A DNA stretch of 64,000 nt, from positions 3,873 through 67,872 of the forward strand of contig JAGLJF010000003.1 in assembly GCA_023142595.1 (NCBI GenBank), in the 5' to 3' direction. This DNA is from Minisyncoccota bacterium. Lineage in GTDB: Bacteria > Patescibacteriota > Minisyncoccia > JAHIHE01 > JAGLIN01. Positions 12,239 through 45,442 of the stretch are shown here, piece by piece. Position 1 is the first letter of the stretch. Each line of letters starts with the position of its first letter. The notes under the pieces were generated by a model that saw only the letters and a list, made by a program, of their open reading frames with translations, was not told the DNA's origin and searched no databases. The position numbers were made by a program, and so were the translations under genes.

Positions 12239-12550
12239 ATGGGAAATACAGAAATAATTGCTAATTTGGGAATTGATCAATATAAGAAACGGCTTGAAGA
12301 CTGCTTCAGAGGCATTACAAAAAAAATTGAAGATAAAATAGCAGATGCCCTCGCCGTCACAGAAGATATAAATAACTTAGTTGATTTGCCAGAACAAACG
12401 AGAAATCAACTCAAGTCAATATTATTTATTGAACTGGTTGCTCTGTATGAAAAAGAAAAATCATATGACAGCACTTATGAAATAATGGGCATCACCAAAG
12501 AACAGGGTTCTGACGCTCTAATGGATGTTCTATCGGGAAATTATGATTAA
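12239..12550 (+). CDS. Hypothetical small soluble protein
   Basis: 103-aa ORF with coding-like composition. No recognisable motif. Confidence 0.3.
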   Translation: MGNTEIIANLGIDQYKKRLEDCFRGITKKIEDKIADALAVTEDINNLVDLPEQTRNQLKSILFIELVALYEKEKSYDSTYEIMGITKEQGSDALMDVLSGNYD

Positions 12551-22237: not shown

Positions 22238-22735
22238 TCAACTATTTGAGGCAATCGCTAGAGCCTTTTCTTCTTCTTCGCTAAGCTTATATTCAGACTT
22301 TCCTTCAATAATCTGCTTTGAATAAACCTTAACTCCATCTCTTGAATATAGACTAAGTATAATAACACCGCTCAACGAATTGTCAAGAAGTGCAATTGCA
22401 AAACTTTGGTTTCCACCGACATCTCCAAATGGATTAAATCTAACAACCCCTACTTTCTGAATACATTTTTTGATATTCTCTCGAATTTCTTCATTCTCTT
22501 TGTATATTTTGTCTATATTCTCGTTAATTTTGTTAGAATTTTTTATCTGATTATAGATAACTTCTTCAAGGTCTTTACTTTGCTTCCCAGTAAAAAAGCT
22601 TCTTGTCTTTTTCTTTATGTTTTTCAAACTCAAACTTAAATAAGTATTCCATGCAAATAAAAAAATCAAAATTGCAATTCCAACGATAATTACAGCTTCT
22701 TGATTATTATTAAAGATGTTTATAATTTCTGACAT
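22238..22735 (-). CDS. DUF4446 family protein (N-terminal TM)
   Basis: VGVVRFNPFGDVGGNQSFAIALLD matches the DUF4446 signature. Confidence 0.55.
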   Translation of the reverse strand: MSEIINIFNNNQEAVIIVGIAILIFLFAWNTYLSLSLKNIKKKTRSFFTGKQSKDLEEVIYNQIKNSNKINENIDKIYKENEEIRENIKKCIQKVGVVRFNPFGDVGGNQSFAIALLDNSLSGVIILSLYSRDGVKVYSKQIIEGKSEYKLSEEEEKALAIASNS

Positions 22736-23057
22736 TTATTTTATATAGATTAAAGATAAAACTAAAAAAGCTACTATGTAACTATACACATAATAGCTTT
22801 TGTGTCGTTATAAGTCAATGAAGAAATAAACAATTTTAAATTCAAAAAATGACGACCGAAGATCCTAAATGATACAAATCTAAACCTAGCGATTGAGGAG
22901 AGAGATTTTTCGCCTTATAGTTATTATAATGAACGAAAAACGCTATTTTTAGACCTGATTAGGACAACTTCAATCGCCCTTTTTTGAAAATAATTCTTCT
23001 TAATTTATTGCTTCCGATATATTATCAGAAGTTTTTTTAAACCTACCTTTTTGATTT

Positions 23058-23166
23058 TGTCATCCTGAACTTGTTTCAGGATCTTTCGTAATATTAGTAT
23101 CATTCTAATAATCTCACAAAACTAGAAGTTGCATACGACAGATTCTAAACTAAATTCAGAATGACA
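23058..23166. mobile_element. Family-1 MITE, short variant (TIRs TGTCATCCTGAA...TTCAGAATGACA, each a hairpin)
   Basis: Terminal inverted repeats and internal hairpins shared with copies at 24594, 31881, 42692, 44157, 44984, 50067. Confidence 0.7.
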
Positions 23167-23286
23167 ATTGTAAAAGATAAACTTAAAAAAATAGAAGGGA
23201 GATTTTAGATTTTTTTATCTAGGCATACATTTTTGTATGTTCTCCTGTTTGGTGTGTAACCAAACAACCCTGTGAGCAGATTAGGT

Positions 23287-24018
23287 CTACTCTTTCTCTT
23301 CTTTATGTACCCTTGTTACAGGGTGCCAATAATTTTTCTGAGAATGACGATGATAAAGAACATCGTCTTTCACCTTTCTCTCCTCCCCGTCAAACTTAGG
23401 AAGAAGAGCCTCAATTCCTCCGATAGGATCTGAACATTTTTCCTCTTCAAAGAGAGGAGAAAATTCATTTTCAATCTTTTCGTAAGCTTCACCTTTTCCT
23501 GGTGAAACTTCCCATGCCAAAGTGTAATCACTTTGACCTTCTTCGATAAAAACTGATAATGGCTTGAATCGAGCCATCAGTTCAACAGCTTTTATTGCTG
23601 CTTCCGCTGTGTTGGGATTACTATGACCCCAACTACTAGCATGAGTCACCAGCTGAGTAAATACTGTCGTGCTCGGAAGCACTATAGCATTTATTGGTCT
23701 CTTCAACTTTACAAGACCTTTATATTTTTGCCATGACATTCCTTGAATGCCATGAATTTCAGTAGTGAATACACTAGCACTGTATGTCCTTATTGACGGA
23801 CATACATTCACAAACCCAGCAGATTCCTGAGCTTTATATCCTTTCAAAGGAATAATTACAGGCATTTCAGGCTTGAATTTTTCCTCTTTAGTAATCTCAA
23901 TAAGATCACCAACTTCTCCTCCAAATCGGAGAACAAATGCCCCAGACTGTGTCTGGGTAACATCTACAACAGATACTGACAAGTTTCTATTGCCAGTATT
24001 AATATATAATGCATTCAT
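23287..24018 (-). CDS. Hypothetical protein with compositionally atypical (higher-GC) sequence; likely horizontally acquired
   Basis: 243-aa ORF with strong SD (GGAGAGGTGA). Its start overlaps (ATGA) the stop of an upstream 57-aa TM ORF. Embedded between MITEs. Confidence 0.45.
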   Translation of the reverse strand: MNALYINTGNRNLSVSVVDVTQTQSGAFVLRFGGEVGDLIEITKEEKFKPEMPVIIPLKGYKAQESAGFVNVCPSIRTYSASVFTTEIHGIQGMSWQKYKGLVKLKRPINAIVLPSTTVFTQLVTHASSWGHSNPNTAEAAIKAVELMARFKPLSVFIEEGQSDYTLAWEVSPGKGEAYEKIENEFSPLFEEEKCSDPIGGIEALLPKFDGEERKVKDDVLYHRHSQKNYWHPVTRVHKEEKE

Positions 24019-24188
24019 AATATCACCTCTCCCACTTCCTTTTCAGATAATTCCAAGAAGCGAGATTTTATATTTAGACTATAACAGTCAAAGCATTCAC
24101 CAAATCCGTTAGTAAATATTTTGACTATTATAATCAAGATGACAAACACAAAAAATTTTATGTTTTTTCTTCTTTTTTCAAAGAACAT
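24015..24188 (-). CDS. Small TM protein (57 aa; MFFEKRRKNIKFFVFVILIIIVKIF...), translationally coupled to the downstream 243-aa gene
   Basis: Perfect SD GGAGGTG 3 nt before ATG. Stop TGA overlaps the next ATG. Not in the supplied ORF track (<60 aa). Confidence 0.35.
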   Translation of the reverse strand: MFFEKRRKNIKFFVFVILIIIVKIFTNGFGECFDCYSLNIKSRFLELSEKEVGEVIL

Positions 24189-24593
24189 TTTCACCTCCGA
24201 TAATTTATCAGAAGCTTTTTCAAACCTACCTTTTTAATTTTGTCATCCTGAACTTGTTTCAGAATGACAATTGTAAAAGATAAACTTAAAAAAAGAAAAG
24301 AAGAAATATGTTAATTATTCTTTGGAGACATTATGTCATCTCCATTTGGATAATCACCTGCTGTCATTATGTTTCACCTCCGTGCAAATTATTTCTTCTT
24401 TTTTTGAGAATATTATTTTTTAATATCCTCCTTGTTAAATGTTTTTTCAACCCCTCTTTGCAAAACATAGAGGTTGATGTAAATGAGTCTGGGTATTGTT
24501 GGTTTAACGGGTCTATATGATTTTAGCCGTAACCTCAACTCTCTCCTCTTTTACATCAATCTATATGCTTTGTTTATTGCAGTGTGACTCAAG

Positions 24594-24703
24594 TGTCATC
24601 CTGAACTTGTTTCAGGATCTTTTGTTTTATGGGCAATGTTTCTAATAATTTCACAAAACTAGAAATTGCAATCGACAGATTCTGAAATAAATTCAGAATG
24701 ACA
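24594..24703. mobile_element. Family-1 MITE, short variant
   Basis: TGTCATCCTGAACTTGTTTCAGGATC ... GATTCTGAAATAAATTCAGAATGACA. Confidence 0.7.
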
Positions 24704-24991
24704 GCAAACAAACAAAAAACGGATAGGAATATTTCTTTGAAAAAGAGTGTCCTAACCGTTTTTTTATATAGAAAAGGTCAGTTGGTAAATTAAATCTATA
24801 TTTATAGATAAATATATGATTCAATAATTCTCTCCTCAAAAAATTAATAATCGCTATATTCAATTTTTAAATTACTGCACTTTCTTACCATAACAGAGTA
24901 TTTTAACATACTTTGCAAATCTTGTCAAGGGGTTAATATAAATCCATTTTAGAATATTTATAGACTTTAATTTATATGCTATAATGTCTTT

Positions 24992-27028
24992 ATGAATAAA
25001 ATCTTAGAAAACTTAAACGACAAACAAAAAGAGGCCGTGACTACAATTGAGGGGCCTGTTTTGGTTATTGCTGGTCCTGGTTCTGGAAAAACAAGAGTGC
25101 TCACGCATCGCGTGGTTTATGCTATTGCTCAAAAAAATATTCCCAAAGAGAGTATTCTAGCAGTCACTTTCACAAACAAGGCTGCCAAAGAAATGAAAAA
25201 CAGAATCGTGTCTTTGCTGGGAAGTATGAATGCGTTAGGTTCTGACAAAAAAGCATTTCACAAAGCAATCAATTCATATTCAACTTCTTTTGCAACAGAC
25301 TTTCCGACAATCTCAACTTTTCACAGTCTCTGCGTGAAAATTTTGCGAGACGAAGCTGAACACATCGGTTACAAAAGAGATTTTGTCATTTTTGATAGCG
25401 ATGACCAAAAATCCTTGATCAAAAAAATAATGAAAGAATTACAAATTGATACAGAAAGCTTTAATCCACGAACGATTTTGGCAGAAATTTCCAATGCCAA
25501 GAATGAACTTCGAAATCCAAAAACATATGAGGAGATGATTGACGGATATAAAGAGGAAACCGTAAGTAAAATTTATAATATATACCAAAAGAGACTCAAA
25601 GAAAATAACTCGATGGATTTTGATGATTTGATTATGCAAACTAGCATTTTGTTTTTCACAAATCCTAAAATTCTGGAAAAATATCAAGACAAGTTCAGAT
25701 ATATTATGGTTGATGAATATCAAGACACAAACCATGCTCAATATAAGCTGGTTAATCTTTTGAGTAAAAAACACAAAAATATTTTTGTAGTTGGTGATGA
25801 TTGGCAGAGTATTTATAAATGGCGTGGTGCTGATATCAAAAATATTTTGGAGTTTGAAAAAAGTTATGCTGGCGCAAAAACAATTCTTTTAGAACAAAAT
25901 TATCGCTCTACGCAAAAAATTCTTGATGCTTCGTATAGCATTATCGCCAAAAATGTAAATCGAAAAGAAAAAAGTCTTTGGAGCAAAAAAGAGTCTGGTT
26001 TTCCAATTACAGTTTATGAAGCAGCTAATGAAAAAGGAGAAGCAGAGTTTATTATTTCAGAAATTGCTAAAGCTAATACAAAAGACAACTTAAGGCTTAA
26101 TGAAATCGCGATTTTGTACAGAACGAACGCTCAATCTCGTTCGATCGAAGAAGCCTTTTTGCAATATAATGTTCCATATCGAATTATAGGTGGAATCAAA
26201 TTTTATATGAGAAAGGAAATCAAAGACATTATAGCCTACTTCAGGCTCATTCAAAATCCAACAGATTTAATGAGTTTTGAAAGAGTGGTCAATACTCCAA
26301 AAAGAGGACTTGGCAAATCAACATATGAAAAAATCATCTCGGAAAGTCGCAATCAAGGAAAAGGTATTGTAGAAATTATTTCGAATTACAACAAGGGAGA
26401 TATTTCTGCGAAAAGATTAGAAAGTTTGGTTGGCTTTGCAAAGATAATTGAGAATTGCAAAGAAAAAACAAAAACAATGAAAATCAAAGAGGTTTTGGAA
26501 TATCTTTTGACAAATATAAACTATGAATTATATATCAAAGACGGAACAGATGAAGGAGAATCGAGATGGGAAAATGTAAAAGAACTTTTCACGGCTGTTG
26601 AAAAATATGACGATTTTACAGCCGAAAAATCATTGAATCTTTTTTTGGAAGAAGTTGCCTTGGCGACCGATTTGGATAAAGTAGACGAAAAACAAGACGC
26701 GGTCACTTTAATGACATTGCATTCTGCAAAAGGGTTGGAATATGATACGGTTTTTATTATTGGATTGGAAGAGGGACTACTTCCTCATGCGATGAGTTTG
26801 AGCGATGAGTTTGAAATGGAAGAAGAAAGAAGATTGTGCTATGTTGGATTGACTCGAGCAAAAAACCGAGCTCATCTTGTTTTTGCCCGTGTACGAAGAA
26901 TTTTTGGCTCCACTCAATCAAACTATCCTTCTCGATTTATATCTGATATTCCCGATCATCTTGTTGATATGCAAAATCAGGGTTATAGTTATTTAGATAG
27001 TGATGAAAGTGAAGCAAATTACTTGTAA
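24992..27028 (+). CDS. pcrA: ATP-dependent DNA helicase PcrA/UvrD/Rep family
   Basis: Walker A AGPGSGKTRVL. UvrD helicase motifs throughout. 678 aa. Confidence 0.85.
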   Translation: MNKILENLNDKQKEAVTTIEGPVLVIAGPGSGKTRVLTHRVVYAIAQKNIPKESILAVTFTNKAAKEMKNRIVSLLGSMNALGSDKKAFHKAINSYSTSFATDFPTISTFHSLCVKILRDEAEHIGYKRDFVIFDSDDQKSLIKKIMKELQIDTESFNPRTILAEISNAKNELRNPKTYEEMIDGYKEETVSKIYNIYQKRLKENNSMDFDDLIMQTSILFFTNPKILEKYQDKFRYIMVDEYQDTNHAQYKLVNLLSKKHKNIFVVGDDWQSIYKWRGADIKNILEFEKSYAGAKTILLEQNYRSTQKILDASYSIIAKNVNRKEKSLWSKKESGFPITVYEAANEKGEAEFIISEIAKANTKDNLRLNEIAILYRTNAQSRSIEEAFLQYNVPYRIIGGIKFYMRKEIKDIIAYFRLIQNPTDLMSFERVVNTPKRGLGKSTYEKIISESRNQGKGIVEIISNYNKGDISAKRLESLVGFAKIIENCKEKTKTMKIKEVLEYLLTNINYELYIKDGTDEGESRWENVKELFTAVEKYDDFTAEKSLNLFLEEVALATDLDKVDEKQDAVTLMTLHSAKGLEYDTVFIIGLEEGLLPHAMSLSDEFEMEEERRLCYVGLTRAKNRAHLVFARVRRIFGSTQSNYPSRFISDIPDHLVDMQNQGYSYLDSDESEANYL

Positions 27029-29609: not shown

Positions 29610-31064
29610 ATGGTATCAAATGAATATATCCCAGTAATTGTTTTTGTTGTTTTTGTTGTAATCTCTATAGCTTTTCTGTCTCGTTTGTACAAATGCTATG
29701 GAACAACTCAAAAATTAAAAGCAGAAAGAGAAAAAACGCAAGAAGAAAGAAGAGATATCGAAACCAACATTAGAAGGTCTCTGTCAGAAGGGATCGATAT
29801 TCGTCAGGAAAATGAAGATAACCGAAAGAGGCTTGCCGATCAAATAGATAAATTAAGAATAAAAGAAGTAGCTGAATGGAAAAAAATTATATTAGTAGGA
29901 ATAATAACCGCTTCATTTTTTGTTCTGTCGGTTGTGTTGTTAATTGAATTAATTTTATTTAGCAGCATAGGACAATACAGGCCTTTTATGTTTACATTAA
30001 CAGAAACGACGGTAATTCTGATAATTGTATGGATTATCTACAGAATTATTCTTAGTTCGACAAAAATCACATTAAAAAATAATGGGGTTGTTCTTTACTT
30101 TGATATACCAGACAAACAAGTGGGCGAAGGACCTATTTTTGCATGGTTTAAAGATGTGAGAATACCAGGAACAGATATCATAATTTCTAGAATAATAGAA
30201 ATTGAAAGAAAGGAAATTGTGTTCGATGTTCACAAAGATAAAACAATGTTGGCGGTCTCAGCTGATTCTACACAGCCCTTTTGGCTTGATGGTTATGTTA
30301 CATATAGAATAAAAGATATTGTCCAAACTATAATTACAACAGGAGAACATAGTCTTGATGGAATAAAGGACTATTTTGAAGGAAAAGAACAGGAGGCGTC
30401 TGTTGAAAATGAAGCCGGAGAAAAAGAAAAGATGAATATTAGAATGGGAGGTATTATAGATTTAACTTTCAGATCTTTTGTGAGAAATTTTTTCCGAGAA
30501 GCAGATAATTTTGGTATAAAAGATGGAGACACCGACGAAGTAGTAATCAATAAGGCGATTGGTGTGCAAGAACAACTTAGTAAGTCATTACACAGTCAGT
30601 TCGCATATCTTAAATATTTTGGAATAGAGCTTATGGCAACAGAAGCAACGGACATTAAGCCGTCTCAAGAAGTTGAAAATAGGCTCGTAAAAGCAAGAAC
30701 TAGCGCACAAGATATTGGCATAGCTACAAAAGAAAAAGATGCAGCTGTTGAAACAGGAAAAGTTGGACCTGAATTAATGAACATCTTTGAGAAAGATGCA
30801 AATTTTGTAATAACTCCAGAAATAAAAAGCGTTATAGCTCTCCTGACTATAAATGCTGATGCACTTAAAGGGGTTTTAGAGGGTTCGAACTTAAATATTG
30901 CATTGGTGCCAGCCATTAACAAACTTGCTGATGCAATTGGTGGCGGAAGTCCCACTTCTGCTGATACAAAAGACTTGGTGAATAAAGTTTTAAGCGAGAT
31001 TAAAAATGACCCACAAGGAATAAAAGCTGTTGTAGATCAAATAAAAAAAGCGAAAATGTTATAA
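29610..31064 (+). CDS. Membrane protein with SPFH/band-7-like domain (stomatin/prohibitin/flotillin superfamily), N-terminal coiled-coil and 3-4 TM helices
   Basis: FGIELMATEATDIKPSQEVENRLVKARTSAQDIGIATKEKDAAVETGK resembles the SPFH C-terminal helix region. An upstream beta-rich segment is SPFH-like. Confidence 0.45.
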   Translation: MVSNEYIPVIVFVVFVVISIAFLSRLYKCYGTTQKLKAEREKTQEERRDIETNIRRSLSEGIDIRQENEDNRKRLADQIDKLRIKEVAEWKKIILVGIITASFFVLSVVLLIELILFSSIGQYRPFMFTLTETTVILIIVWIIYRIILSSTKITLKNNGVVLYFDIPDKQVGEGPIFAWFKDVRIPGTDIIISRIIEIERKEIVFDVHKDKTMLAVSADSTQPFWLDGYVTYRIKDIVQTIITTGEHSLDGIKDYFEGKEQEASVENEAGEKEKMNIRMGGIIDLTFRSFVRNFFREADNFGIKDGDTDEVVINKAIGVQEQLSKSLHSQFAYLKYFGIELMATEATDIKPSQEVENRLVKARTSAQDIGIATKEKDAAVETGKVGPELMNIFEKDANFVITPEIKSVIALLTINADALKGVLEGSNLNIALVPAINKLADAIGGGSPTSADTKDLVNKVLSEIKNDPQGIKAVVDQIKKAKML

Positions 31065-31084: not shown

Positions 31085-31744
31085 ATGATAGCATTGGCTT
31101 TTGTGCTTGCTTTAATTGTTATAGTAAGTATAATAATATTTAAAAAATTGAAAACCAGAGCTTCATCAATGGCTTTGACTTCAATAACATCTCCAAAAGT
31201 CCCAAAAATAAAAATCACCGCGAGTAATTTATTCAAATTATTTGTTTACGGAACGGTGATTTTTATGTTAATAGCAATGATTTTATTTTCTTCATTGCTA
31301 GTTTATAGTACTTTTTGGGAAGGAGAGTCAGAGGCGGAAATTGAATATCTGCATCCGACGGAAACCAATCAATATATATTTTCTCCAGCAGGAACCGGCA
31401 ATCATAAAATCGGTCCCGCAACAGAGGATGTAGAGATTCATCTCGCATCTTATAATCTGGAAAATTTTGATTGGAAAAATATTTCTTTCGTCGTTACAGG
31501 AGGAGAGAAATATAAAACAAAAATCATCTTTGTCAAACATTACGACAAAGATGACAATGACAATGTTGTCGTTCCCGACAGATTTATTGAAGATATTGGC
31601 CCTTCGTCGGAAACAACGCAAAAAAAGTATCATCAGTCAGTATACTGCCCTGATGATGCAGAAGGATCTTTTATTCTTGTAGTTTATCTTAAAAAAGGTG
31701 GCTACATAGAGATTGAAGATCTACACATAGAAACTTGGGAATAA
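31085..31744 (+). CDS. Hypothetical membrane-anchored protein (2 TM + beta-rich ectodomain); possible NfeD-like partner of the preceding SPFH protein
   Basis: SD GGGAGG 8 nt upstream. Architecture only. Confidence 0.3.
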   Translation: MIALAFVLALIVIVSIIIFKKLKTRASSMALTSITSPKVPKIKITASNLFKLFVYGTVIFMLIAMILFSSLLVYSTFWEGESEAEIEYLHPTETNQYIFSPAGTGNHKIGPATEDVEIHLASYNLENFDWKNISFVVTGGEKYKTKIIFVKHYDKDDNDNVVVPDRFIEDIGPSSETTQKKYHQSVYCPDDAEGSFILVVYLKKGGYIEIEDLHIETWE

Positions 31745-31880: not shown

Positions 31881-32055
31881 TGTCATTCTGAACTTGATTC
31901 AGGATCTTCGTTAGGTTAGATTTTGACTTATACTATCTACACGATACTATTGTATAAAAAAATACAACTATGTTTTTTGTAATAATCTGGTTAGCGATTT
32001 ATAGGCTTGCTTTAATATATAAGAATAAAGATTCTGAACTAAATTCAGAATGACA
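31881..32055. mobile_element. Family-1 MITE, full-length (~175 bp)
   Basis: TIRs TGTCATTCTGAA / TTCAGAATGACA. Internal sequence about 80% identical to copies at 44157 and 44984. Confidence 0.75.
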
Positions 32056-32191
32056 ATTTTTTTATTAATGAATCATCTAACATACTTAAAAAAATTGTGC
32101 TTTGTTTGCGTTTTATGATATAATGAACTAAATTATTTTTATTTTATACTCAATAAATAAATTTAATTGTTATCATTATTTTTAAAAAAAT

Positions 32192-41592: not shown

Positions 41593-42243
41593 TCATGTTA
41601 ATTTTACAACTAAAAAATTTATTTCTTTGGGATGTAAATTTGTTCGACTTGTTTGTGGATTATCTTTTCCAAAAACAAAATAAGTTCTTTCTGCTGGATT
41701 AACATTTAATCCGCCACTAGAAATACCTAATTTTGCTAATGTTCCTTCGTCTTTTAAGCCTTCTATACTTATTCCAATGTGAATAAGTCTTGATCCATGA
41801 TTTTCAGCATAACCTCTTATCCCAGTATCTTTATATTCCGTAATCGTAACATAGCATTCTTTATATAAAGGATGTTCAATTGTTTTCGGAAGTTCATTTA
41901 TCGCAACAAGACCATTTAACCCACCAAAACTGTCAACGATTTGCTTAAATCGGATACCTTGATTATAAAAATCAAGCTCTGACTGTGTTGTTATAGATAT
42001 AGTCGGATTTACAGAATCTGCATCTTCTGTTTTAGCCTCTTCTTTGTTAGCATTCAATTCTGGATTTAATCCCAATTTTTCGGTTTGCTGAACTTCTGAT
42101 TGTTCATCTCTTGTATCACTAGCAATTCCTATTAGCGTCATTGCTACAATTAAGATTATTGCAAGCATTAATCCAATTATAACAAATTTTGAACCTCCCC
42201 TTAAAGGATTATTTACATTTGCATTGTCTGGCATATCTATCAC
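41593..42243 (-). CDS. Hypothetical N-terminally membrane-anchored extracytoplasmic protein
   Basis: SD AAGGAGTGA. TM at residues ~20-42. Confidence 0.35.
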   Translation of the reverse strand: MIDMPDNANVNNPLRGGSKFVIIGLMLAIILIVAMTLIGIASDTRDEQSEVQQTEKLGLNPELNANKEEAKTEDADSVNPTISITTQSELDFYNQGIRFKQIVDSFGGLNGLVAINELPKTIEHPLYKECYVTITEYKDTGIRGYAENHGSRLIHIGISIEGLKDEGTLAKLGISSGGLNVNPAERTYFVFGKDNPQTSRTNLHPKEINFLVVKLT

Positions 42244-45145: not shown

Positions 45146-45337
45146 ACTATTGTCGTTTTGTCTTTTGAAAATTTACATTAAATATTATGTAACTCAAGTA
45201 TACATTAATTTTCAATATAAGTGAAATTTTTGTTTATTGATTGACTGTTTCATCTAATATGATATTATTCTAATAGAAAATGAGTAACAATTCAGTAACC
45301 TAACCTTCAGACTTTTTGTTTGGAGTATGGTTTAAAT

Positions 45338-45442
45338 CCACTCGCGTAGAAACGGTCTTCTGATCGGTACTACGCGAGTGGTCTTTACCTGAAAGGGTAT
45401 TGGGCAATCCGAAAGGGTCGCCGCCGACGGAAGACCTTTTTT
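45338..45442 (+). ncRNA. Candidate structured RNA / cis-regulatory leader upstream of the secreted nuclease gene
   Basis: Perfect 12-bp stem (CCACTCGCGTAG...CTACGCGAGTGG). Its loop (GGTCTTC) is complementary to a 3' GAAGACC followed by a T-run, giving pseudoknot/terminator potential. Locally GC-rich in an AT-rich genome. Confidence 0.3.

Follow-up and report, generated by a model that had tools for sequence, protein, structure and literature searches.

We find that, in the island (22740-24990) that separates the DUF4446-infB operon from pcrA in this 64,000-nt stretch of DNA (the window), only the 243-aa gene is a bona fide conserved gene; it belongs, intact, to a protein family that lacks annotation and is so far known only from CPR-type contigs. 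To our minds, the balance tips - albeit slightly - towards the island being an old, partly ameliorated foreign-gene insertion into a MITE-rich gap, most likely derived from a CPR phage or another mobile element of these bacteria. Unannotated genes abound in CPR (Patescibacteria) genomes, and very little is known of the phages and mobile elements of these bacteria. In this context, the locus offers a concrete handle on one unannotated CPR family with at least 111 sequence clusters and a confidently predicted structure, which is repeatedly found next to TrmB-type regulators and in surroundings of a phage-like or defence type and carries a consistent foreign signature (a Shine-Dalgarno (SD) site plus GC3 excess). 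For the window itself, the outcome is mostly one of clarification: of the three ORFs, one is a real gene and the two small ones are doubtful, and the whole is probably an old insertion framed by MITE-containing repeats.

The island and its conserved gene

The island (Table 1) is the MITE-rich intergenic gap of a window with 31.6 % GC from a Ca. Pacebacteria (Parcubacteria) MAG, and the genes flanking its cassette are DUF4446-infB-rbfA and pcrA. The island is fixed in the population, the 10 contigs compared all being 99.9-100 % identical. The first-pass annotation saw here 2.2 kb of mostly repeats; repeats are indeed present, but their share was overstated, as they make up ~30 % of 2.25 kb and two ORFs ~40 %. 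Read from the sequence, the ATGA overlap between the start of the 243-aa gene and the stop of the 57-aa ORF is real, and so are the GGAGGTG upstream of the 57-aa ORF (at a spacing of only 3 nt) and the 18-codon ORF with its own GGAGGTG. Rfam models gave only sub-threshold matches on the island and nothing on the intergenic regions of the family gene at eight homologous loci. Remnants of genes that neighbour the family elsewhere were not detected either, since the family gene was the sole match when 721 ORF fragments taken from nine homologous loci were compared with the island by tblastn.

Table 1. Features of the island, in window coordinates
Feature	Position	Strand	Basis or remark
243-aa gene	23287..24018	-	ORF list and 111 representative homologues
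57-aa ORF	24015..24188	-	ORF list; stop overlaps 243-aa start (ATGA)
18-codon ORF, peptide MTAGDYPNGDDIMSPKNN	24311..24367	-	putative, read from sequence
SD GAGGTG (inside GGGAGAGGTG)	24024..24029	-	5 nt upstream of 243-aa ATG
SD GGAGGTG	24192..24198	-	only 3 nt upstream of 57-aa ATG
SD GGAGGTG	24375..24381	-	7 nt upstream of 18-codon ORF
Direct-repeat copy 1, 185 bp	23013..23197	.	left flank 23013-23057, full family-1 MITE 23058-23166, right flank 23167-23197
Direct-repeat copy 2, 105 bp	24196..24300	.	left flank 24196-24240, fused TIR pair 24241-24269, right flank 24270-24300
Third family-1 MITE copy	24594..24703	.	86 % identity to copy 23058-23166
Single-copy inverted-repeat element, 112 bp	24461..24572	.	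27-nt arms, 85 % complementary
Best candidate sigma-70-like promoter towards cassette	24900..24928	-	TTGACA-17-TGnTAAAAT, 11/12; consensus match only
Weaker promoter candidate towards cassette	24410-24438		consensus match
Terminator-like hairpin between cassette and DUF4446-infB operon	22766..22801	-	15-bp stem, then T-run

That the 243-aa gene belongs to a genuine family follows from 111 representative homologue clusters at E<=1e-3, 50 of them at E<=1e-10, with phmmer E values to individual members ranging from 3e-35 to 1e-3. The family was defined by one alignment (A1), which proved too diverse for locus searches, so a second (A2) was used for these. Of the 24 columns conserved at >=85 %, the window protein matches 22 (the deviations being D7N and F199I, compared with a family median of one deviation). 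Conservation resides in an N-terminal domain of ~190 aa (residues 1 to ~200) with invariant R11, R31, G68 and E193 and with S-N and E-G-Q-S-D motifs; near-invariant across the family are D7, S66 and S133-N134, and the E-G-Q-S-D motif is E160-G-Q-S-D164. The C-termini vary across the family, and that of the window protein forms a His-rich module (HRHxxxxYWHPVxRVH, residues ~205-240).

The absence of recognisable domains, claimed at first pass, holds up. The 243-aa protein found no match at E<=1 in Pfam-A, NCBIfam, PHROGs or PADLOC, the family consensus and the C-terminal motif none at E<=10, and none of 59 family members matched Pfam; a PDB profile search likewise returned nothing. With a 59-sequence alignment, AF2 yields a confidently predicted structure (pLDDT 87.2, pTM 0.79; pLDDT only 33 from the single sequence), for which a search of structures other than predicted ones found no neighbour, so that the modelled fold appears to have no detectable structural relative. 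Two specific identities were considered and set aside. An HUH relaxase or Rep endonuclease does not fit, as the N-terminal domain has no conserved His-hydrophobic-His or His triad, H126 is conserved only in the 13 closest members, the C-terminal HRH is missing from most members and structural similarity to HUH relaxases (NES 4ht4, MobM 4lvi, MobA 2ns6, TraI 9f0z) is not significant. A DGR target, an idea prompted by variable C-termini and direct repeats, appears unlikely as well, with the repeats lying outside the gene and the neighbours of the island being the infB operon and pcrA. Based on the conserved residues (R11, R31, E193, D7, S66, S133-N134 and E160-G-Q-S-D164), the His-rich module and the neighbours seen elsewhere, our tentative guess would be a cytoplasmic metal- or phosphate-binding enzyme or a nucleic-acid-binding protein, with a role in conflicts between phage and host or in the DNA/nucleotide metabolism of phages.

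In having no Pfam, NCBIfam or PHROG model, in stemming from metagenome assemblies only and in showing a recurring neighbourhood (here a TrmB-type regulator in 6/13 other loci), the family resembles the unannotated families described from uncultivated taxa, such as those of the FESNov catalogue (PMC10849945). What it has in addition is a persistent GC/GC3 excess along with SD retention.

Translation signals and base composition

This host and the other host genomes start almost all genes without an SD. In the window, an SD-like 4-mer at positions -18 to -4 precedes 4-5 of 49-51 ORFs, where ~3 would be the estimated chance level, and pcrA is apparently leaderless with TATAAT 6 nt before its ATG. 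Against this background, all three cassette ORFs have an SD, placing three consensus sites within 360 nt, and GGAGGTG occurs six times on both strands of the window versus 1.6 expected. An SD also lies upstream of the family gene in 14/14 loci examined, and a k-mer search of the 300 bp on either side of 13 loci singled it out as the only shared element. The SD-free window genes and the leaderless-looking pcrA agree with the SD-independent translation reported for Parcubacteria (Tsurumaki et al. 2022, PMC9297842), from which the SD-bearing cassette is an exception. Of the 16S sequences of Parcubacteria, only 48 % are reported to contain the anti-SD motif (PMC9297842), and the contrast described here bears on this reported loss in half of the group. 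The contrast between SD-led and SD-free genes may also serve as a genome-wide flag for foreign or specially translated genes of Parcubacteria.

With regard to composition, the first-pass annotation called the GC content of the 243-aa gene clearly higher than its surroundings. Its GC is indeed second highest among 51 ORFs (0.389 vs a mean of ~0.317, sd 0.036; z +2.1), but the signal is modest and comes mostly from the first two codon positions: none of the other ORFs has a higher GC1, whereas GC3 (0.279 vs ~0.234) reaches only z +1.4. Since the excess is concentrated in these two positions, amino-acid content could explain it, and the protein is FYMINK-poor and GARP-rich. In codon usage, too, no other ORF among the 51 is more atypical, yet z is only -1.9. 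The window copy is only mildly atypical, and the composition evidence within the window alone is weak.

Across the family, the trend is broader. In 11/13 loci with flanking DNA, either the gene or the block it belongs to exceeds host-like neighbours in GC and GC3. This applies to the family gene itself in the window and at seven homologous loci (L001, L012, L014, L015, L018, L020, L095), with GC3 values of, for example, 0.54 vs 0.34 in L020 and 0.58 vs ~0.3-0.4 in L095; at three more (L016, L094, L097) the gene lies inside a GC-rich block of SD-bearing genes. The window copy thus shares the SD-led start and the GC/GC3 excess of the family, the latter in weaker form than most members. High-expression codon bias was rejected as the cause of elevated GC3, as no such elevation is seen in the ribosomal protein and SSB genes of L012 and L020, whose GC3 lies 0.15-0.25 below that of the family gene.

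One far-reaching way to combine these data, a long shot in our estimation, would be that the family is a structurally new, CPR-restricted "xenogene" of CPR-phage origin, kept GC-rich and SD-led by selection in AT-rich, non-SD genomes, often under a divergent TrmB-type regulator, and representing a separately controlled translation class in Parcubacteria whose anti-SD has been weakened or lost. If this were true, SD-led genes might, for example, be expressed only when phage or stress alters the ribosome, and the cassette would mark a so far hidden tier of translational regulation in the conflict between CPR bacteria and their phages.

Foreign or native origin

Our preference for a horizontal origin of the 243-aa gene is based on the SD contrast, the SD in all homologues examined, the GC/GC3 excess in 11/13 loci and the phage or defence contexts of homologues. 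As for the latter, L096 is a tight operon of uniform 50 % GC with a phage thymidylate-kinase-like gene (phrog_2107) and a ParB-methyltransferase (phrog_498, E 9e-126), neighbours in L016 and L094 match phage families of unknown function (phrog_23674, phrog_30542, phrog_21731), L095 is flanked by HEPN/MNT toxin-antitoxin pairs and L097 has an AriA/PtuA-like ATPase nearby. The commonest context, seen across CPR phyla, is a TrmB-type regulator within ~1.5 kb, divergent or adjacent, which adjoins the family gene in L012, L013, L014, L015, L018 and L020; tblastn of four such TrmB neighbours against the window found none. The horizontally acquired module proposed at first pass is thereby supported for the 243-aa gene, although not for its three-ORF extent (see below). 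As GC3 lies only 1.4 sd above the mean and the flanking repeats are ~10 % diverged, the acquisition would not be recent; given also that the island is fixed in near-identical contigs, recent mobility is not visible.

A rather unlikely alternative sees the gene as native, i.e. as a vertically inherited, lineage-restricted CPR gene whose GC content reflects amino acids or RNA/protein-level selection, whose SD reflects selection for strong expression and around which MITEs accumulated incidentally. It draws on the dominance of GC1/GC2 over a GC3 raised by only 1.4 sd, on the FYMINK-poor, GARP-rich protein, on the age of the flanking repeats and the fixation of the island in the population, on the recurrence of TrmB synteny across CPR phyla and on SSB genes in L012 and L020 that are SD-led, too. 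Moreover, in 6/13 other loci the family gene adjoins a host-like TrmB regulator in a syntenic position, and in L012 and L020 this arrangement has been inherited with the family gene still GC-rich, which points to selection rather than recent import; repeated transfer would explain it no better than selection for a high GC content. This scenario is difficult to reconcile, however, with a family-gene GC3 that exceeds even ribosomal protein and SSB genes at those same two loci, with phage-like and toxin-antitoxin/defence contexts elsewhere, with a chromosomal position that differs in almost every lineage and with a window that lacks TrmB. Nor does the family gene occur at any of 71 metagenome loci with conserved DUF4446-infB-rbfA synteny. 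The nearest DUF4446 relative has a 90-bp gap at the island position, which shows that the gap is normally compact, although the comparison is not close-range (the nearest relatives being only 56 % identical, or 65 % for IF2, with different upstream genes).

Against the foreign-origin reading we must hold that no integrase, transposase or phage gene adjoins the cassette in the window and that no family member was found among IMG/VR contigs, INPHARED phages and PLSDB plasmids. The locus nonetheless invites comparison with single-gene genomic islets and the morons of phages: a single conserved cargo gene is set between conserved housekeeping operons and has a promoter-like site, an SD and a terminator-like hairpin of its own, it departs from the host in composition and translation signals and its homologues occur in phage-like operons. 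The locus differs from them in that the window has no surrounding prophage (phage-family neighbours being confined to L016, L094 and L096), in being an apparently old, partly ameliorated insertion and in having MITE-containing direct repeats as flanks.

Small ORFs and repeats around the gene

Whether the cassette is a translationally coupled module of three ORFs, as the first-pass annotation had it, depends on the two small ones. The 57-aa ORF (basic N-terminus, one hydrophobic segment, CxxC) is annotated by gene callers on the population contigs; the near-identity of these contigs makes them uninformative on selection for either small ORF. The 57-aa ORF is AT-rich (GC 0.276), and a search of 5.8 billion protein clusters found only itself, suggesting a putative lineage-specific ORFan. 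The 18-codon ORF may be a leader ORF or may have arisen by chance. That annotation had itself named missing conservation of the small ORFs at homologous loci as evidence against its proposal, and at the eight homologous loci checked nothing corresponds to either of them.

A functional operon, in which the 18-codon ORF encodes a regulatory leader peptide, the RF-TIR-LF and SD-sequestering hairpins form an attenuator and the 57-aa membrane peptide is a coupled partner, is therefore quite improbable in our view. It can invoke three consensus SD sites in an otherwise SD-poor genome, the genuine ATGA overlap and a very structured leader (24900 to 24189; z -7.4), where base pairing with CUUCUGAU can fold the GGAGGTG of the 57-aa ORF into a small hairpin predicted to mask this SD. 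Speaking against it, neither an upstream small ORF nor coupling was seen at any of the eight loci (0/8), the 57-aa sequence is an ORFan and unlike its supposed partner in being AT-rich, its 3-nt SD spacing is sub-optimal and the leader structure derives from generic palindromic repeats. With regard to leader-peptide attenuators, a predicted hairpin can mask the 57-aa SD, and the leader ORF is conserved at none of the eight loci. We infer that both small ORFs arose in this lineage only, as by-products of a leader that is AT-rich and derived from repeats. They may at most act locally as translational-coupling or leader ORFs and would stand outside any acquired three-gene module.

The repeats themselves - two family-1 MITEs, a fused TIR pair and a duplicated junction - are confirmed, with the junction turning out to be part of a longer direct repeat whose copies are 88-91 % identical and bracket the cassette. 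The TIR TGTCATCCTGAACTTGTTTCAG has 12 matches in the window (<=3 mismatches) versus 0 expected, and family-1 copies (110-180 bp, left and right ends matching) number at least 10 in 64 kb; short, non-coding and multi-copy with terminal inverted repeats, they qualify as MITEs. Non-coding length, TIRs with internal hairpins, copy number and intergenic location are features shared with MITEs and palindrome-associated repeats of small bacterial genomes; here they differ in forming a scaffold around a gene, and an autonomous partner element was not identified. The fused pair (29 nt) reflects an internal MITE deletion between TTCAG microhomologies. Direct-repeat copy 1 lies 89 bp downstream of the 243-aa stop, and copy 2 abuts the SD of the 57-aa ORF, whose GGAGGTG straddles the end of the left-flank repeat.

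Could the MITEs have brought in the gene? We consider it very unlikely that the cassette is a MITE-bounded composite element, i.e. ~1 kb of cargo mobilised by direct-orientation family-1 MITEs with a transposase acting in trans. Two same-orientation copies do flank the cassette, and the abundance of the family would suit such a model. The duplication, however, runs 45 bp and 31 bp past the MITE TIRs into flanks found nowhere else in the window, and inclusion of this unique sequence implies that the second copy was not made by transposition. In addition, one copy is down to 29 nt, no transposase-like ORF was seen within the island span, target-site duplications are not evident (no consistent one at 10 MITE copies inspected) and, as opposed to composite transposons, there are no two functional terminal elements with transposition-made junctions around the cargo. 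The repeat ends (TGTCAT...ATGACA) look unlike the attC cores (RYYYAAC/GTTRRRY) of integron gene cassettes. The repeat bracket suggests that the foreign gene we favour may have entered, or been rearranged, by recombination at the direct repeat rather than by MITE transposition.

A short sequence, AAACCTACC, is present in the left-flank repeat of the window and recurs as CCTACC hairpin loops in the intergenic region of L012 and L020. As a shared cis motif it was dismissed as coincidence, being on the opposite strand relative to the gene and absent from other loci. The homologue in L018 is likewise bracketed by a repeat, in this case of 69 nt.

Island layout and open reading frames

The 2.2-kb gap between the DUF4446 gene and pcrA, in a window of 31.6 % GC overall, is best explained as an old insertion of a single foreign gene, drawn from the phages or mobile elements of CPR bacteria. 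One gene would have entered the repeat-rich gap long ago, keeping its Shine-Dalgarno (SD) site while its base composition became partly ameliorated, and the island would be an unannotated example of a familiar kind, the foreign single-gene islet. A hypothetical protein in a Candidatus Pacebacteria MAG has exactly the sequence of the 243-aa protein, which is carried by 13 contigs; among the 10 retrieved (deriving from a single study and a single NCBI assembly), the island is 99.9-100 % identical and gene order is the same wherever contigs are long enough to show neighbours. Across 71 metagenome DUF4446 loci the family gene is found in none, and in the nearest of these the gap upstream of DUF4446 measures 90 bp.

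Features of the island, the window and homologous loci (L numbers denote contigs carrying the family gene)
Feature	Position	Strand	Remarks
DUF4446 gene	22238-22735	minus	Pfam E 1e-44; then infB, rbfA
Terminator-like hairpin, predicted	22801-22766		pattern match only; frames unit
Inverted-repeat elements	22836-22993; 24461-24572		26-27-nt arms; each single-copy in window
Direct repeat, copy 1	23013-23197		185 bp
Full family-1 MITEs	23058-23166; 24594-24703
243-aa ORF	23287-24018	minus	GAGGTG 5 nt before ATG
57-aa ORF	24015-24188	minus	GGAGGTG 3 nt before ATG; ATGA overlap with 243-aa ORF
Direct repeat, copy 2	24196-24300		105 bp
Fused TIR pair	24241-24269		MITE with interior deleted between two TTCAG microhomologies
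18-codon ORF	24311-24367	minus	GGAGGTG 7 nt before ATG
Consensus promoter, predicted	24928-24900		11/12; pattern match only; frames unit
TATAAT to pcrA ATG	24957-24994		TATAAT ends 6 nt before ATG
pcrA	starts 24992	plus
Further SD-led ORFs	12239-12550; 41593-42234	plus; minus
SD-led ORF pair	29610-31064; 31085-31744	plus	484 and 219 aa
Family-1 MITE	31881-32060		just downstream of ORF pair
Family-1 MITE cluster	44157, 44419, 44984		three copies
LOOT RNA	45297-45422	plus	Rfam RF03000, 67.3 bits (gathering score 46.4)
Intergenic region between TrmB gene and family gene	L012 4583-5991; L020 1578-2973
Regulator and large-protein pair	L013 2791-5372; L014 1038-4942; L015 3300-6807
SD-using block	L016 387-7966		six genes, GC 0.47-0.67
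Hairpin-containing direct repeat	L018 6890-6958, 7766-7834, 8260-8328		69 nt; third copy downstream

While the sequence bears out the three ORFs, the ATGA overlap of the longer two and the GGAGGTG sites of the small ones as the first-pass annotation had placed them, the three-gene module it proposed finds no support. The 57-aa ORF is AT-rich (GC 0.276) and an ORFan, its sole hit among 5.8 billion clusters being itself, and eight homologous loci have no sequence or positional analogue of either small ORF; both appear to be local and are best regarded as putative. The SD of the 57-aa ORF runs into the left-flank repeat at its end, and a small hairpin is predicted to be able to sequester it. Palindromic repeats explain why the putative leader (24900 to 24189) is predicted to fold much more stably than shuffled sequences (z -7.4). 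A search of the island for remains of the genes that adjoin the family gene at nine homologous loci found none.

SD sites and base composition

All three consensus SD sites of the cassette fall within 360 nt, and GGAGGTG occurs six times in the window (both strands) against 1.6 expected. An SD-like 4-mer at -18 to -4 precedes only 4-5 of 49-51 long window ORFs, about chance level, the usual upstream sequence being A/T runs, and the TATAAT next to pcrA suggests a leaderless start. Judged by these upstream sequences, the genome appears to start translation almost without SD sites, in agreement with a report that about half of Parcubacteria have lost the anti-SD motif (retained in only 48 % of 16S sequences; Tsurumaki et al., PMC9297842). 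In contrast, the family genes examined carry an SD 5-9 nt upstream in 14 of 14 cases, whereas most of their host neighbours have none. It is mainly this contrast, together with a sizeable protein family lacking a structural relative among those searched (PDB, BFVD), that gives the finding its worth. Elsewhere in the window, two neighbouring ORFs of 484 and 219 aa, both with hydrophobic N-termini and without a recorded Pfam hit, belong to the very few other SD-led genes and may be a second foreign cassette.

That the 243-aa gene is compositionally atypical, as first noticed, stands for overall GC (0.389 against a mean of 0.317, sd 0.036, second highest of 51 ORFs), for GC1 (0.516 against 0.416, the highest) and for synonymous codon usage, where it deviates more than any other of the 51, though with a z of -1.9 and almost level with a second ORF; the GC3 shift is likewise modest (0.279 against 0.234, z +1.4). 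FYMINK residues are scarce in the protein (z -1.9). By itself, composition within the window is weak support for foreign origin, and it is mainly family-wide evidence that supports the original proposal of horizontal acquisition. In 11 of the 13 loci with flanking DNA, the family gene or its SD-bearing block lies markedly above surrounding host-like genes in GC and GC3: 0.54 against 0.34 in GC3 at L020 (z +7), 0.51 against 0.32 at L018, 0.70 against 0.44 at L014, 0.55 against 0.40 at L012 and 0.58 against about 0.3-0.4 at L095; at L016, L094 and L097 the gene belongs to a GC-rich block whose genes bear SD sites. The exceptions are L013, where the gene matches its host, and L096, a phage-like operon of uniformly 50 % GC.

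In the main rival reading, the gene is native and selection maintains its composition and SD; both the modest GC3 shift of the window copy and the TrmB-linked copies, which are syntenic and persistently GC-rich, speak for it. Expression-linked codon bias does not explain the excess, since ribosomal protein and SSB genes have the composition of the host, as do adjacent TrmB genes and intergenic DNA. To our minds, insertion of a foreign gene is still the better-supported reading. The L016 block, which abuts SD-less host genes (GC 0.33-0.43) and includes a 1000-aa DEAD/HA2-type helicase, a phrog_23674 phage-family protein and the family gene, looks like an integrated foreign element.

Neighbourhoods and the protein family

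Phage-family neighbours occur at L016 and L094, the L096 operon holds a thymidylate-kinase-like gene (phrog_2107) and a ParB-methyltransferase (phrog_498, E 9e-126), HEPN/MNT toxin-antitoxin pairs flank the gene on both sides at L095, and L097 has an AriA/PtuA-like ATPase as context. At six loci (WWE3, Paceibacterota, Saccharibacteria and unassigned contigs) a TrmB-family regulator lies within about 1.5 kb, and its neighbour is often a large protein whose C-terminal region is shared; no TrmB gene is present in the window. Such a pair, the regulator of about 250 aa and the large protein of 608-1049 aa without Pfam hit, recurs beside the family gene across CPR phyla, and the regulators of L013 and L014 share 59 % identity though their contigs are assigned to different phyla. 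By eye, the shared region resembles an acetyltransferase. Between L012 and L020, the block of TrmB, intergenic DNA and family gene is 76-86 % identical against 64-69 % for flanking housekeeping genes. The intergenic region on these WWE3-type contigs (86 % identical), with several hairpins bearing CCTACC loops and no matching Rfam family, may encode a conserved regulatory RNA or hold a series of binding sites.

Where a word-indexed search gave one relative only, exhaustive phmmer brought up 111 representative clusters, with E<=1e-10 for 50. As first stated, there is no recognisable domain: no model in Pfam, NCBIfam, PHROG or PADLOC matches the protein, Pfam has no entry for any of 59 relatives, and profile searches with the family consensus and with the C-terminal motif likewise gave nothing. 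The AF2 model built with the alignment (pLDDT 87.2, pTM 0.79) was put through the structure search that had been proposed, and Foldseek returned nothing at E<0.1 from PDB or BFVD. Conservation spans residues 1 to about 200, with R11, R31, G68 and E193 invariant and D7, S66, G90, G93, S133-N134 and E160-G-Q-S-D164 nearly so; the window copy matches 22 of 24 highly conserved columns and so looks functional. C-termini range from 0 to about 450 aa. A His-rich module, H-R/K-H-x4-Y/F-W-H-P-x2-R-V/I-H, ends the window protein (residues ~205-240) and some relatives. Among the other proteins noted to carry it (P0003, P0033, P0034, P0041, P0069, P0100 and P0076), it stands alone in P0100 and occurs in tandem in P0076; no Pfam model matches it, and it may bind metal. 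From the invariant Arg/acidic/Ser-Asn constellation, this module and the phage-like and toxin-antitoxin or defence neighbourhoods, we would tentatively guess, with considerable doubt, at an enzyme or a protein that binds nucleic acid, with a part in phage-host conflict or in the DNA metabolism of phages. A relaxase is rejected, as the family has no HUH motif.

Repeats around the cassette

About 30 % of the island is repeat sequence, rather than most of it as had been thought. Matches to the family-1 MITE TIR number 12 across the window, with none expected. Since the duplication reaches past the MITE, with 45 bp of left and 31 bp of right flank also repeated, a direct repeat (copies 88-91 % identical) brackets a 998-bp segment with two ORFs. 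In the window these flank sequences are found only at the two sites, and their duplication opposes MITE transposition as the source of the second copy, favouring a past event, either recombination or duplication, at a repeat that already existed. The L018 homologue is similarly bracketed by a direct repeat. Elsewhere in the window, a LOOT RNA directly follows the MITE cluster and partial TIR repeats.
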